Source: Escherichia phage Ecwhy_1. Taken from it: DNA of 64,000 nucleotides. The notes under the pieces are model-generated. The model did not search any database, was not told the origin of the DNA, and was given only the letters and a program-made list of their open reading frames with translations. The position numbers and the translations under genes were made by a program. Within the stretch, counting starts at the first letter, position 1, and each line of letters starts with the position of its first letter. The stretch lies in sequence record MH791411.1. The stretch is one strand, 5' to 3'. Below are positions 28,858 through 41,431 of this stretch, in pieces.

Positions 28858-29236
28858 ATACATGATATACGTTCATTATACTATTATATAGTTCAAAGTC
28901 AAATCCAAATGTGTCATCAATGAACTGGTATTGCAGATATTCTTCATATGAAGCATCAATTGGTAATGATCCAGCACGAATATCATCTGATTTAAAATCG
29001 TCAATGTATCTTAATGTTATGTCTTCATCAACAGTAATATCTATCATCAACGTATCGTCACTGTACCAAAGGTTATGTATACGGATGTAAAGTTTCTTAG
29101 CACGATTAAAACTAGATACATTGGTATTGCGATGGAGTTTATCTAAGTTGAAGTAAAAACCAGGCTCGTTTTTACTTATGTTTTTCATATGTTCTGCAAT
29201 CGAATCAATTATATAATCAATGTTGAATGTTCTCAT
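28829..29236 (-). CDS. hypothetical protein, member of a tandem paralogue pair
   Basis: Paralogue of 28420..28857; the ATG at 29236 overlaps the upstream stop (ATGA); track start 29242 is TTG. Confidence 0.5.
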   Translation of the reverse strand: MRTFNIDYIIDSIAEHMKNISKNEPGFYFNLDKLHRNTNVSSFNRAKKLYIRIHNLWYSDDTLMIDITVDEDITLRYIDDFKSDDIRAGSLPIDASYEEYLQYQFIDDTFGFDFELYNSIMNVYHVYEDYIGGRK

Positions 29237-29418
29237 AAACAAATCTCATAGCGGTTTGTGTTTGGATTGTAGCAATAGGTATCATTAATTTTAACACCAG
29301 GTTTAAGTGTTATTGTTGTTCCTACTTCAGTACTGGGTTCTGCATCACAATAAATCATCACACCAACGCCACAGATTAAAGCTAAGATACAAATAATAGC
29401 ACATATTGTATATTCCAT
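29233..29418 (-). CDS. small membrane protein
   Basis: 61 aa from the ATG at 29418; N-terminal hydrophobic helix ICAIICILALICGVGVMIY; start overlaps the stop of micro-ORF B (TGATG). Confidence 0.45.
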   Translation of the reverse strand: MEYTICAIICILALICGVGVMIYCDAEPSTEVGTTITLKPGVKINDTYCYNPNTNRYEICL

Positions 29419-29543
29419 CACTCCCCCATCAGCCAATCAAAGAGACGTTCCAAGAAGCCATTAGGCTTGTATTCTGGTTCTTTGTTCACGTCGGTTTCTT
29501 GTTCATAAACACCCAAATCTTCTTCAAGTATAATTGTATTCAT
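29418..29543 (-). CDS. conserved micro-ORF, copy B (41 aa, ends DWLMGE)
   Basis: ATG start; protein MNTIILEEDLGVYEQETDVNKEPEYKPNGFLERLFDWLMGE parallels copy A; stop overlaps the next start. Confidence 0.45.
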   Translation of the reverse strand: MNTIILEEDLGVYEQETDVNKEPEYKPNGFLERLFDWLMGE

Positions 29544-30321: not shown

Positions 30322-30350
30322 AAGAAAAGGGACAGAATAATCTCTGTCCC
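30322..30350 (-). terminator. rho-independent terminator downstream of the hpf-like gene
   Basis: Hairpin gggacag-aataatct-ctgtccc (30329-30350); on the minus strand followed by ttttctt. Confidence 0.65.
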
Positions 30351-30361
30351 TTTATTATATC

Positions 30362-30694
30362 TTACTCTTCGTCTTCAGTCAAGTCTTCTTGAACTGGATG
30401 TTCGGGGTGGTTACGGCGATGCAATTTGATGCTTTTGTCTTTACCTAAGACAGTTTCCATTTTTTCAAATGAATCACCAATTGCTTTGTATAAATCTGCA
30501 TCATCGGCGGTGACAATCTTACCACCTGATGTTAAAGTTACGGAATATTGATTCTTATGCTCTTTCTTCACATGAACACCGATATAAAGTACTGAAGAAT
30601 CACTAAACTTCGTTAGTGCATTTGCTTCTGCATGAATCGCGTCATTGATTGCTGGAGTAATATCAACATTACCTTGGATAACTAAATCTAGCAT
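30362..30694 (-). CDS. hpf: ribosome hibernation promoting factor / RaiA-family protein
   Basis: 110 aa; aligns along its length with E. coli HPF as I recall it (ITG-N-V-ITxA near the N-terminus, a G-x-I-xA-x-DxYxAIDxxxxKL core, Lys-rich tail). Confidence 0.7.
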   Translation of the reverse strand: MLDLVIQGNVDITPAINDAIHAEANALTKFSDSSVLYIGVHVKKEHKNQYSVTLTSGGKIVTADDADLYKAIGDSFEKMETVLGKDKSIKLHRRNHPEHPVQEDLTEDEE

Positions 30695-30719: not shown

Positions 30720-31646
30720 TTAAAGATTACTAACTAACAATTCTGCACGGTTTCCTACTTGACGATACCATAGAGAATTCTTAATTTCTTTTTTGAACTT
30801 GTTATTATTTTGATTATCAACGCTTTTCCATAATTTATTGAAAGTATTTAACTTATCAACTCCTAATGTAAATGCCATCTCAAATAAAATTCGTTGTTGT
30901 TCAGCCGTAAGGTTTGTTGCATTTCTTTTCTTCAATAATAAAACTAAATCATTATTAGTTCGTTCCATGTCAGACAATAAAAGTTTATGTGCTTGTGACT
31001 TCGTAATACCATTACGATACTTACTTGCATCTGATTCTTTCTTTCCAAGATAATGTCCGTACCCAATAGTGAAGTTACCTTTTATATCACGATACGGATA
31101 AAATTTAGAATTTCGATATGGAACTCCAACTTTCCCACCAAGTAAACGTCGTTTGTTCTTGGACTGAAATTCAATAGAACCTTCAGCTTCTTTGATGTGA
31201 TTGACAATTTCTGGATCTTTATAATCAAACAGTACAGTCACATCTGGTAACAATACGTGCTTCAAATCCTCTTTTGTTGGGATAAAGATACCCTGAGAAG
31301 TATGAAGAGTTGCATTTAAGTTGATGTTCTTCAACAAAATGACATAATCTTCAATCTGTACATTTTTAGGTTTAAATTTCTGTGCAATAGAATAATAACT
31401 ATCACCAGGTTGAACCGTATAATGTTTCTCGCTGCTTGGAACTGCTTTTGGTACTGACACCTGTGGTAGTTCCTGCTTTTGAATTTGCGTAACTTGTGGT
31501 TTTAAATTATGCACCTGACTTTCGTCTAATGATGATGCACGATCACTTTGAGAAAAACCATAAAATCCAATCGCAGCGAATAGGGCTGATGAAACTAATA
31601 CGCCTACGGCAATTTTAGTTTTCAGTTCTTTTTTCGCTTTTTTCAA
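30720..31646 (-). CDS. endolysin: N-terminal TM/signal-anchor + LysM + T4-lysozyme-like (GH24) domain
   Basis: Hydrophobic segment KIAVGVLVSSALFAAIGFYGF; LysM (YTVQPGDSYYSIAQKF); lysozyme motifs GNFTIGYGH, RILFEMAFTLG, SLWYRQVGNRAELL. No in-frame ATG near the 5' end; probable TTG start at 31646 preceded by AAAGGAGG. Confidence 0.8.
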   Translation of the reverse strand: MKKAKKELKTKIAVGVLVSSALFAAIGFYGFSQSDRASSLDESQVHNLKPQVTQIQKQELPQVSVPKAVPSSEKHYTVQPGDSYYSIAQKFKPKNVQIEDYVILLKNINLNATLHTSQGIFIPTKEDLKHVLLPDVTVLFDYKDPEIVNHIKEAEGSIEFQSKNKRRLLGGKVGVPYRNSKFYPYRDIKGNFTIGYGHYLGKKESDASKYRNGITKSQAHKLLLSDMERTNNDLVLLLKKRNATNLTAEQQRILFEMAFTLGVDKLNTFNKLWKSVDNQNNNKFKKEIKNSLWYRQVGNRAELLVSNL

Positions 31647-31813
31647 AACGCCTCCTTTGTTGGTTGTTAACAATGAGCAATCACAAAGAGGGCAAAGAGG
31701 CCATTTGCAAAAGCCTCATTGGACTTTCTACAGTACTCAGTTGTTCTTTGGAACATTTAAGTAGTATAGCATACTTTTTAGTTATATCAAGACCTATTTA
31801 CCAAATAACCACA

Positions 31814-32224
31814 TTAATCGTAGTATGTTCTACCAATGGTGATGTGATATTTGAAATATTTAGATGCCAAACCCAGTTCATTACGAATATGTGCAATGAA
31901 ATCATCTTCAAACTCTATGATAAAGAATGACCCAGGTTTCTTATTGTCTTTTACTTCTTCGATGAAAGGATCGAACTTAATCTTAACTTTCATACCATCG
32001 TACTTTTTCCAGTACTCTGGATTTGGTGGCACTTCACCACGAACGATACTGACATGTGCTCCCCATTGTGGGTCTTTAATATCAATATGTAAGTCAGTTC
32101 TGATGAAGTACTGGTAGTATCGAACCAACTGTAATGGAAGTTGCAGTACTAACCAGAAGTCCTTCTTCTTTTTCATAGTGCCACGATCTGGATCATACAC
32201 CAGAGTTCCTTCCATTTCAATCAT
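31814..32224 (-). CDS. 2H-phosphoesterase-like protein (LigT/cyclic-phosphodiesterase fold)
   Basis: 136 aa with two H-x-[ST]-x motifs (AHVSIVRG and YHITIGRT) at the spacing expected for the 2H superfamily. Confidence 0.5.
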   Translation of the reverse strand: MIEMEGTLVYDPDRGTMKKKKDFWLVLQLPLQLVRYYQYFIRTDLHIDIKDPQWGAHVSIVRGEVPPNPEYWKKYDGMKVKIKFDPFIEEVKDNKKPGSFFIIEFEDDFIAHIRNELGLASKYFKYHITIGRTYYD

Positions 32225-32435: not shown

Positions 32436-32581
32436 ATTTTACACCACAATAAAGCTTAATACAACGAGTGTAATAAACACACCCACAATGGCGGTCATTT
32501 CAGGGTTAGCATCGTATGTATAACGGATGCACTTTAGAAAATCTTTACCAAACTTTTTTAGTCCATTCATATATTTTCCTT

Positions 32582-32938
32582 TCATTTCTTGTGTAAAGGG
32601 TCGGCACTTTCATAATAGATTGTATCATTGTTTCGCTCAATAGTAAAACTCTTTTGACACAACTCTTCAGCTAAACCCTTAGCATAGTTTAATACATCTC
32701 GGTTGAGATATACTTCTTCTTTTGGGAAGCGTGGGTACTGAATAATACGAGCACACATTCCACTTTCAAGACCACCCGTGTAGATGTATTCACACGGAAT
32801 CAATTGTACACAAAATCCAAGCTTGAATGCAAACTTTCGTGTGTACTCTCTTGCTGTTTGGATATCACCAGCAATATGAATATTCCAGTACTGTGTTTCA
32901 ACTGTACCTTTGTCGATGTATTTCATACTCATCTCCAA
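32582..32938 (-). CDS. hypothetical protein
   Basis: 118-aa ORF. Confidence 0.45.
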   Translation of the reverse strand: MEMSMKYIDKGTVETQYWNIHIAGDIQTAREYTRKFAFKLGFCVQLIPCEYIYTGGLESGMCARIIQYPRFPKEEVYLNRDVLNYAKGLAEELCQKSFTIERNNDTIYYESADPLHKK

Positions 32939-33834: not shown

Positions 33835-34059
33835 TTAAACGTTATCATCATCCAAAGCTTCACGGTAAACATAATAAACATGCGTACCTAGAAGAACAAT
33901 GAGTACAATGAATACTAACCAGAATGGTACAAAATGCAGTACAAGTGCAAATGCCATTACGGTAATAACCATCACTACTGAACTAAAAATAAGACTAGTC
34001 GCTTTTTTAAATCCAGATAGTACATCATTCAAAACGCGTTTCATAAATGAATCAACCAT
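33835..34059 (-). CDS. small membrane protein
   Basis: 74 aa; hydrophobic segment VVMVITVMAFALVLHFVPFWLVFIVLIVLLG. Confidence 0.45.
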   Translation of the reverse strand: MVDSFMKRVLNDVLSGFKKATSLIFSSVVMVITVMAFALVLHFVPFWLVFIVLIVLLGTHVYYVYREALDDDNV

Positions 34060-40131: not shown

Positions 40132-40743
40132 TTAATTGTGATTATTCAATTTCTTTTGTTCTTTTTTTAGAGCTTTCATATGTCGTCCAAAATCACGAAC
40201 ATGCCATATATGGTCGGTTTCCCATAGTTCTGTACGTAAACGGCGTTCTTCCAATTCTTCTGGCGTAGGAATTTTAGATTTCTTCTTATCTTTATTGAAA
40301 AAATCATTCATATGTTCTTCCAGTAGATTTCTACCCTTAACTTTTTCCAGGAATTCATCTACTGATTCAGTTTTATTAGAACGAAGACTGTTACAACGTG
40401 AACACATGGTGTTGTAATTTGACTCTAAATCAGGTCCACCCTTAGATGCTAGTTGGTTATGATCTACTGTCATCAGTACTTCATATAGACCACAAACTGC
40501 ATAGACATTTAAGTGAGGTTTACCATATACCGGATCAGTGCTATGTGAACGCTCAATGCGAACTTCAGTGGCTTCAATACCACACGCAACGCATTTACGA
40601 TTCTTAACGAATGTAAGTACTTTTTGTGGGAAGTATCGGAAAGTAACACCGTTATATGTATAGCGTTTCATCTGTGTACTTCTTTGATTTAACTCATCAA
40701 GAAGTGATAGTTTGGCAACATAGTAGACCTGATATTTTGACAT
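40132..40743 (-). CDS. HNH-family endonuclease (free-standing, possible homing endonuclease)
   Basis: 203 aa; CVACG ... VDHNQLASKGG ... NYNTMCSRCN gives the HNH motif with zinc-binding cysteines. Confidence 0.65.
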   Translation of the reverse strand: MSKYQVYYVAKLSLLDELNQRSTQMKRYTYNGVTFRYFPQKVLTFVKNRKCVACGIEATEVRIERSHSTDPVYGKPHLNVYAVCGLYEVLMTVDHNQLASKGGPDLESNYNTMCSRCNSLRSNKTESVDEFLEKVKGRNLLEEHMNDFFNKDKKKSKIPTPEELEERRLRTELWETDHIWHVRDFGRHMKALKKEQKKLNNHN

Positions 40744-40745
40744 TT

Positions 40746-41060
40746 TTAATCCTCGGATTTAATTTTAACCTTAACATCTTGATTTTGTAAATCACGAATA
40801 GTTTTAATTAATGCATCATGTTTTAGTGCACAGTCATTGTACATTGCATCCCATTTTACGAGTACTGCAAGAATTTCAGCACCATCATATCCTCTGAACC
40901 CGTTTTTATCGACCATGATTTTACTTGGTAGTGGTGTATTTTCGTCACAACGTTCAAGTAAGATTTCTTGTTCTACAATTGGCTTAGGTTGATACTTAAT
41001 TTCTTCAGCACAACCACTAATTAATAGAAAAGAAATTGCAAATACTAAAGCGTATTTCAT
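40746..41060 (-). CDS. outer-membrane spanin (o-spanin lipoprotein)
   Basis: 104 aa; signal peptide with lipobox LLISGC; directly downstream of and overlapping a TM plus coiled-coil protein. Confidence 0.55.
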   Translation of the reverse strand: MKYALVFAISFLLISGCAEEIKYQPKPIVEQEILLERCDENTPLPSKIMVDKNGFRGYDGAEILAVLVKWDAMYNDCALKHDALIKTIRDLQNQDVKVKIKSED

Positions 41061-41431
41061 TTGAATTTATTCCTCGCTGCAAGGGAATTCTGTTTAAGTT
41101 CATTCAGAAGTTTAACGCCATCTTCATCTAGACATACGTTTTTGTAAACTTCTCTTTCTACTATAATAGGCACTTGTGTCTCAATAACTTTAGCATTATC
41201 TTGCATTATCTTTTTGGTTTCTATATAGTTTTTTGCATTTTCTTGCTGCATCTTAGCGAGTGCAGAATCAACTTTCTTTTCTATTTTTTGGTCAATACTT
41301 TCTTTATAACCAGTATAATAAGTATTTGCTGACCATCCACCGTAAACACAACCTGCCATTACTCCTACTACCAAAATTGGTTTCCAATATGGTATTAAAA
41401 CTTTTGAAACAATAATTTCTAGTACACTCAT
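41057..41431 (-). CDS. inner-membrane spanin (i-spanin)
   Basis: 124 aa; N-terminal TM helix (ILVVGVMAGCVYGGW) followed by a charged coiled-coil-like periplasmic domain; stop overlaps the o-spanin start. Confidence 0.5.
   Translation of the reverse strand: MSVLEIIVSKVLIPYWKPILVVGVMAGCVYGGWSANTYYTGYKESIDQKIEKKVDSALAKMQQENAKNYIETKKIMQDNAKVIETQVPIIVEREVYKNVCLDEDGVKLLNELKQNSLAARNKFK

Follow-up and report, generated by a model that had tools for sequence, protein, structure and literature searches.

The gene on the minus strand at 30720..31646 of a 64,000-nucleotide (nt) stretch of Escherichia phage Ecwhy_1 (MH791411.1; the window) raises the question of whether a lysozyme carrying a membrane anchor is the enzyme that lyses the host and, if so, whether it acts as a signal-arrest-release (SAR) endolysin. 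The coding sequence is 927 nt long, with its stop codon at 30720..30722, and specifies a 308-residue muramidase made up of a transmembrane (TM) helix, a LysM domain and a GH24 domain. An identical coding sequence is annotated in UE-S1, phAPEC6 and fEgEco12, and the protein matches PHROG 15410 over its full length (7e-158). The gene is the Asteriusvirus ortholog of an annotation that has already been published, so the finding itself is already known. Its role as an endolysin and any SAR behaviour are less secure than the literature and the initial annotation of this DNA assume.

The open reading frame was listed at 30720..31673 (minus strand), and the initial annotation had proposed that it holds no ATG near its 5' end and is translated from a TTG behind a strong ribosome-binding site. 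Both points hold. In-frame ATG codons begin only at codon 227 (M227), downstream of the catalytic glutamate, which a protein started at an ATG would therefore lack. The TTG at 31644..31646 is in frame, occupies the same aligned codon in relatives and is preceded, across a 4-nt spacer, by the Shine-Dalgarno (SD) sequence AAAGGAGG (31651..31658, minus strand), which is read directly. An AAGGAG core SD lies ahead of the start in all relatives compared. At the aligned codon Asteriusvirus and Mimasvirus start with TTG, the Salmonella Munch-like phages and a more distant clade (L025) with GTG, and only the Klebsiella phage Muenster with ATG; for the ortholog CBB_187 the CBB supplement likewise gives TTG (PMC5259590). 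In Mimasvirus an in-frame stop codon (TAA) falls inside the SD itself, so that an upstream start is impossible there. The upstream TTG at 31673 was considered as a start and rejected, because UE-S1 and phAPEC6 have GTC or ATC in its place, so that the codon is not conserved, and because it could not serve in Mimasvirus. The N-terminal peptide x-KA-x-QELKT and the hydrophobic helix are kept down to 40% overall identity, which shows that both are translated. Taken together, these comparisons of sequence make TTG 31646 a well supported translation start. Non-ATG starts are locally rare (5 of the 68 annotated genes in the fEgEco12 neighbourhood, the other 63 beginning with ATG), and since this weak start is kept in three of the four phage groups it looks selected rather than accidental. 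Its conservation across genera appears to be previously undescribed.

The division of the protein into an N-terminal hydrophobic segment, a LysM domain and a T4-lysozyme-like domain, as first proposed, matches the GenBank annotations of relatives. Residues 1-11 (MKKAKKELKTK) have a net charge of +5. They are followed by an uncharged hydrophobic helix of the signal-anchor or SAR-like kind, IAVGVLVSSALFAAIGFYGF (codons 12-31; 31554..31613, minus strand), with a Kyte-Doolittle mean of 1.99 over 19 residues. Codons 32-74 (31425..31553, minus strand) form a disordered tether rich in Q, S, P and V, recognized from the AlphaFold2 model and from the family alignment, across which its length and sequence vary. 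AlphaFold2 gives pLDDT values below 50 for residues 1-72 and above 90 for residues 73-308. The LysM peptidoglycan-binding domain (codons 75-122; 31281..31424, minus strand) opens with the motif Y-x-V-x-x-G-D-[ST], present here as HYTVQPGDSYYSIA. Pfam LysM (PF01476) matches the window protein with E = 2.4e-4 (21.4 bits against a cutoff of 20.9) and 18 of 30 family members, the best of them at 1.3e-6. The isolated segment aligns with the solved LysM domain 4s3j over the whole module (E = 4.7e-6), and AlphaFold2 builds residues 75-121 as beta-alpha-alpha-beta with pLDDT above 90. We conclude that the LysM domain is genuine.

The catalytic domain (codons 145-308; 30723..31214, minus strand) has the GH24 T4-lysozyme fold, as judged from Pfam, Protein Data Bank (PDB) and Foldseek comparisons. 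Pfam Phage_lysozyme (PF00959) matches above its cutoff (1.4e-9), a phmmer search of the PDB aligns residues 17-151 of T4 lysozyme, and a Foldseek search with the AlphaFold2 model returns T4 lysozyme entries at the top with a probability of 1.00, the best native TM-target value being about 0.6-0.65. Residues E155, D187 and T193 align with E11, D20 and T26 of T4 lysozyme and are invariant in 30 relatives, so that both the fold and the Glu-Asp-Thr triad are in place and the domain is predicted to be an active muramidase. The TM helix, the LysM domain and the three catalytic residues are all kept in the family alignment down to 40% identity. T4 lysozyme (gpe) and the lysozyme domain of T4 gp5 share the fold and the triad. 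Compared with T4 lysozyme (26% identity), the window protein adds the membrane anchor and the LysM domain, lacks the C-terminal tail and carries a 23-residue insertion that lengthens the spacing between the Glu and the Asp. Thirteen of the 23 inserted residues are common to the two other lysozyme domains of the phage, which belong to a free 162-residue protein (34% identity to the catalytic domain) and to the C-terminus of the 887-residue baseplate hub (32%).

The 3-kb stretch around the gene is 97% identical to Escherichia virus TH47, 95% identical to fEgEco12 and 86-88% identical to PBECO4, phAPEC6 and slurp01. By sequence relationship the phage is an Asteriusvirus (PBECO4/121Q-like), a member of the Rak2-like jumbo myoviruses, whose genomes are about 350 kb in size. 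The protein family comprises about 78 clusters at 90% identity, all of 300-330 residues, and every cluster that could be traced to a genome or was named by its source comes from a Rak2-like genome. Its orthologs include CBB_187, 121Q gp532, GAP32 gp180 and RaK2 gp506 (81% identity to 121Q, 56% to CBB and GAP32). With the CBB_187 group the gene shares the TM, LysM and GH24 layout, the TTG start and the synteny with genes for an HPF homolog and a CCA-adding enzyme; nothing substantive differs, the window helix being less hydrophobic than that of most members. Buttimer et al. (2017) described CBB_187 as an N-terminal transmembrane domain followed by a LysM-like and a C-terminal lysozyme domain, named GAP32 gp180, 121Q gp532 and RaK2 gp506 as its homologs, and predicted it to be the endolysin, comparing it with SAR endolysins (PMC5259590).

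Between a promoter-like site and the SD lies a structured leader (31693..31753, minus strand) made up of a first hairpin, the invariant GUAGAAAGUCC and a second hairpin, which scores 54.6 bits against a covariance model. The model finds exactly one copy per locus, always before this gene (for example at L004 2329-2395, L007 2360-2425 and L006 2343-2410), and neither the rest of the 64-kb window nor 43 kb of fEgEco12 contains another. In IMG/VR, a pattern scan gave one copy of the motif per complete genome, with five extra matches that are due to chance. The sequence of hairpin 1 varies (AGUAGUA/UACUAUU with a UUCG loop in Mimasvirus, UAGUC/GACUA in the Munch-like phages, UUAACUC/GAGUUAA in L020 and UCAGUAU/AUACUGA in Muenster), the window version being short and weak. 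Hairpin 2 has a conserved 5' strand, CUUUGUGCAAA, and a base that covaries (GAGGC/GCCUC, GCGRC/GUCGC and GUGGC/GCCAC). In an alignment fitted by the model, and thus biased towards the structure to which it was fitted, 85% of the cells are paired against 35-51% when the partners are slid, both sides have changed in seven pairs against one to four in controls, and covariation scores 0.212 where the controls reach 0.097 at most. G-U pairs, which are common on the sense strand, argue for a structure in RNA rather than in DNA. RNAalifold also proposes a rival helix, AAAGUC:GGCUUU, that excludes hairpin 2, and the minimum free energy of the whole leader is unremarkable (z-score -1.37).

Other explanations of the leader fared poorly. 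It has no Rfam match at E <= 1, so it does not belong to a known RNA family; a phage-sigma promoter or another repeated site was rejected because there is a single copy per locus and genome and the spacing of the blocks varies; and an upstream open reading frame occurs in Asteriusvirus only, with a frame that is not conserved. Sequestration of the ribosome-binding site by CCUCUUUG repeats, by analogy with T4 gene e, was rejected as a general mechanism. The window SD has an unpaired probability of 0.15 against 0.27 +/- 0.16 in shuffled leaders, which is not significant; only the Mimasvirus group shows significant sequestration (CCUUAUU:AAUAAGG, p 0.005-0.035), and the Munch-like and Muenster leaders lack the pairing. 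In the Mimasvirus leaders (L004, L005 and L021-L023) CCUUAUU can pair either with AAUAAGG flanking the SD or with the second copy of AAUAAGG, which lies in the 3' strand of hairpin 2, and L016 carries matching changes (AAUAAAG and CUUUAUU). These alternative pairings suggest that a three-element switch may operate in Mimasvirus only. The leader is conserved in four Rak2-like groups (Asteriusvirus, Mimasvirus, Alcyoneusvirus and the unclassified Munch-like phages) and appears to be undescribed. The simplest reading of the leader together with the conserved weak start is a post-transcriptional limit on a toxic exported enzyme.

As to what the enzyme does, we lean towards a holin-independent endolysin or co-endolysin. 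On this reading the protein would be translated from TTG 31646 behind its strong SD, as the comparative evidence indicates, and the basic N-terminal tail and 20-residue helix would direct Sec-dependent, holin-independent insertion with the N-terminus inside and the C-terminus outside. Sec export of the LysM and muramidase domains in this way is predicted with fair confidence, as in SAR endolysins. The tether of about 43 residues, the LysM domain and the T4-type muramidase would then face the periplasm, where peptidoglycan might be cut while the enzyme is tethered or after the helix leaves the membrane upon collapse of the proton-motive force, in a SAR-like manner. The spanins encoded 10 kb away would breach the outer membrane. 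None of the protein-level locks known from SAR endolysins can operate here, and the safeguard would instead be control of dosage through the non-ATG start, the short 4-nt SD spacer and the gene-specific structured leader. In support of a role outside the particle, two independent virion proteomes, those of phAPEC6 and CBB, contain the hub lysozyme but not this protein. This literature evidence identifies a non-virion muralytic enzyme, and some GenBank records therefore probably err in labelling it a "tail lysozyme". Of the endolysin call made in the initial annotation, the muramidase architecture and the absence from virions stand in favour; the promoter context and a soluble paralog of the enzyme, discussed below, stand against.

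A number of observations weigh against the favoured reading, and the first group concerns the SAR mechanism. SAR endolysins (P1 Lyz, R21 of phage 21 and phiKMV gp45) are likewise GH24 muramidases of the T4 lysozyme fold with an N-terminal, weakly hydrophobic TM domain rich in Gly, Ala and Ser. We summed a Hessa-type biological hydrophobicity scale over the best 19-residue window of each helix. The window helix scores +1.15 with 47% Gly/Ala/Ser/Thr, compared with +0.46 (53%) for P1 Lyz, +0.78 (63%) for R21 and -2.46 (32%) for the stable anchor of lambda Rz, all three reference sequences having been verified at 100% identity in phage records. In hydrophobicity and composition the helix thus appears SAR-like and far from the stable Rz anchor. 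Across the family, the TM scores span -2.5 to +3.5, so SAR behaviour is not a conserved prediction. The helix lies about 115 residues from the catalytic domain, with the 43-residue disordered linker and the LysM domain between them; the protein has no cysteine; and the N-terminal helix of the catalytic domain (residues 145-156) is complete and confidently modelled by AlphaFold2 without the TM domain. A remote TM domain, the lack of cysteine and a complete catalytic helix mean that neither known mechanism of SAR activation applies: the disulfide switch of P1 Lyz is impossible without cysteine, and the refolding of R21 is not needed where the helix bearing the catalytic Glu is already complete. 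The TM domain neither adjoins nor joins the catalytic domain in the way that release-activation requires. In further contrast with SAR endolysins, no adjacent pinholin was recognized and the promoter-like site is not of the late type. Of the SAR or signal-anchor proposal, then, what survives is a marginally hydrophobic helix like those of P1 Lyz and R21; the known mechanisms of activation do not. Mu gp22, with its releasin gp25, and the signal-peptide endolysin Lys44 are also exported by Sec, and a canonical holin does not govern their activation or their release from the membrane. No releasin homolog and no evidence of cleavage were found here, and the small syntenic TM proteins are candidates.

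The second group concerns expression and a competing enzyme. ATAAATA has been proposed as the late promoter motif of CBB and GAP32. Against about 26 copies expected, the gene strand of the window has seven (minus strand; 22538, 19472, 51303, 15762 and 15240, and also 60247 and 18635), and TATAAATA is absent against about eight expected. For five of the seven copies of this T4-late-promoter-like motif a start codon follows 30-60 nt downstream, the tail sheath gene and a tail tube gene being among the genes concerned. Such depletion and placement fit a working late promoter whose motif is avoided at other places. There is no ATAAATA ahead of the lysozyme gene, where a sigma-70-type promoter-like site is found instead (TTGATA-16-TGcTATACT; 31763..31790, minus strand), matching the consensus at 10 of 12 positions with a TG-extended -10 and resting on that consensus match only. 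No second lysozyme is encoded within the 64-kb window. Elsewhere in the genome, between a gp25-like gene and the hub gene, lies the gene for the soluble 162-residue T4-type paralog. In fEgEco12 (g331) the 45 nt ahead of its ATG contain ATAAATA and a perfect TATAAATA (L040 1916..1960), and in CBB (CBB_239) ATAAATA stands at the same place (L059 16786..16830), so that the late motif lies directly upstream of the paralog in two genera, Asteriusvirus and Mimasvirus. The paralog purified from UE-S1 lyses EDTA-treated cells (PMC12805682), and it was not detected in CBB virions (PMC5259590). It is a strong alternative candidate for the endolysin. Because this second, soluble lysozyme with a late promoter motif competes strongly, the status of the anchored enzyme as the main lysis enzyme is unproven. 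A 220-residue protein, also encoded elsewhere in the genome, has a single N-terminal TM domain and weakly resembles the T4 holin T (PHROG 6e-4; HHpred E 2.6). The phage may therefore possess, apart from the gene studied here, everything that lysis in the T4 style requires: the soluble lysozyme, a T-like holin and the spanins. The sole experimental hint for the anchored family, and one that speaks for the favoured reading, is the remark that induction of CBB_187 inhibits the growth of E. coli, data for which were not shown (Buttimer et al., 2017; PMC5259590). Neither a transcriptome for Asteriusvirus nor expression data for any Rak2-like phage were found, PA5oct has no homolog, and the Muenster and Munch genome notes do not mention lysis.

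These points feed the best surviving alternative, a possible though clearly less probable one, in which the anchored protein is an accessory enzyme and lysis is carried out T4-style by the 162-residue lysozyme, the T-like holin and the spanins. A tethered LysM-muramidase made at a low level from a host-type promoter might remodel or weaken peptidoglycan in the manner of MltG over the long infection cycle of a jumbo phage, or might serve as a timing or back-up factor. In E. coli MltG, one N-terminal TM helix is combined with a LysM-like domain and with a domain that cleaves glycan strands, and the enzyme works from the inner membrane; its catalytic domain is unrelated (a YceG lytic transglycosylase), and it is a cellular housekeeping enzyme. 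The accessory role would suit the setting of the gene among nucleotide, tRNA and translation genes, and its probable co-transcription with the gene for an HPF/RaiA ribosome-hibernation-factor homolog (30362..30694, minus strand; Pfam Ribosomal_S30AE, 7.4e-11), which begins 25 nt after the lysozyme stop. The sigma-70-type site is conserved in position, with TTGACT-17-TATAAT in UE-S1, TTGACA-17-TAAAAT in Muenster and TTACAG-17-TATAAT in Munch. Additionally, cells infected with Sharanji filament and bulge before they burst (PMC11895373). Against these stand the facts that sites of this promoter type are not enriched regionally (16 against 12.6 +/- 3.4) and that the Mimasvirus leader has no clear promoter ahead of it. 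The 162-residue protein could also be a low-copy baseplate component, and the holin assignment is weak.

A more specific and more doubtful proposal gives the leader the central part. The protein would be an early or continuously made muramidase, tethered to the inner membrane and throttled in translation by the leader RNA, in which two covarying hairpins surround GUAGAAAGUCC and the alternative AAAGUC:GGCUUU pairing can form. It would remodel peptidoglycan, for instance in the filamentation and bulging seen with Sharanji, and the T4-style set would lyse the cell.

It is rather improbable that the helix is instead a cleaved Sec signal peptide, leaving a mature soluble periplasmic LysM-lysozyme like Lys44 of oenophage fOg44 that has no membrane release. 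The N-terminus could be parsed as a basic n-region of 11 residues, a possible 12-residue h-region and then AAIG, and A-I-G|F obeys the -3/-1 rule. The form A-[IF]-G-[FL] is conserved in the family, and signal peptidase could cut at the conserved A-[IF]-G|F, a possibility that likewise counts against the favoured endolysin reading. The uncharged stretch, however, runs to 20 residues and ends in an aromatic GF-x-GF belt typical of the ends of TM segments, and a transmembrane domain is reported both by the CBB authors (PMC5259590) and in the GAP32 annotation. A virion lysozyme of the tail or interior, as annotated in Muenster, Munch and G17, is very improbable: outside its own family the catalytic domain does match virion-associated enzymes best (the PHROG 13211 hub lysozyme at 3.4e-20 and, in the PDB, a phiKMV-type internal virion protein) and the protein is a 32% identical paralog of the phage's own hub lysozyme, but unlike the latter it was undetected in the phAPEC6 and CBB virions, it carries an N-terminal membrane anchor, and its gene is not part of the structural modules and has no late motif.

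The surroundings of the gene supply the remaining lysis candidates. The spanin pair placed at 40746..41431, 10 kb away, was confirmed by a PHROG match, a lipobox and gene overlap. The i-spanin (41057..41431, minus strand) has an N-terminal TM domain and matches PHROG Rz-like spanin at 1.2e-27, and the o-spanin lipoprotein (40746..41060, minus strand) has the lipobox LISGC and a weak Rz1-like LysC match. A 4-nt overlap joins the genes, which together form a two-component spanin system; the PBECO4/121Q spanins have been catalogued (PMC6139136). Directly downstream of them is an open reading frame (40132..40743, minus strand) that is annotated as an HNH endonuclease in fEgEco12 (g253).

The view that no holin lies nearby holds insofar as no open reading frame within about 20 kb on either side matches a holin family; it needs amending in that three small membrane proteins, none of which has such a match either, are encoded within 2.5 kb. 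The first, of 74 residues (33835..34059, minus strand), lies 2.2 kb upstream, shares 8 nt with the end of the thymidine kinase gene and has two adjacent TM domains and an acidic C-terminal tail. Its size and topology are like those of class II holins, which makes it a candidate holin or pinholin on topology only, and it appears to be previously undescribed. The second, of 43-48 residues with a C-terminal TM domain (32439..32585, minus strand; PHROG 37784), is syntenic with the lysozyme gene in all genera examined. The third, of 61-67 residues, has a single TM domain (29233..29436). Immediately upstream of the lysozyme gene a 136-residue protein (31814..32224, minus strand) weakly resembles a 2H-phosphoesterase (2H-SAK), with a Pfam score that stays under the cutoff. 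On the other side, the HPF homolog is followed by a terminator-like hairpin (30326..30353) that is annotated as a terminator in UE-S1.

As a published annotation found again, the gene by itself changes little, and its value lies in the question that it exposes. The Rak2-like jumbo phages have two candidate endolysins under promoters of different types. Should the tethered muramidase prove to lyse the cell, it would represent a SAR-like endolysin unable to use either known activation mechanism, and it would seem to rely on control of dosage through a weak conserved start and a dedicated leader RNA. Should it not, it would be a phage-encoded cell-wall remodeller resembling MltG. Either outcome would add to the biology of lysis, and it would also matter for the engineering of phages that are therapeutic candidates and of their lysins.

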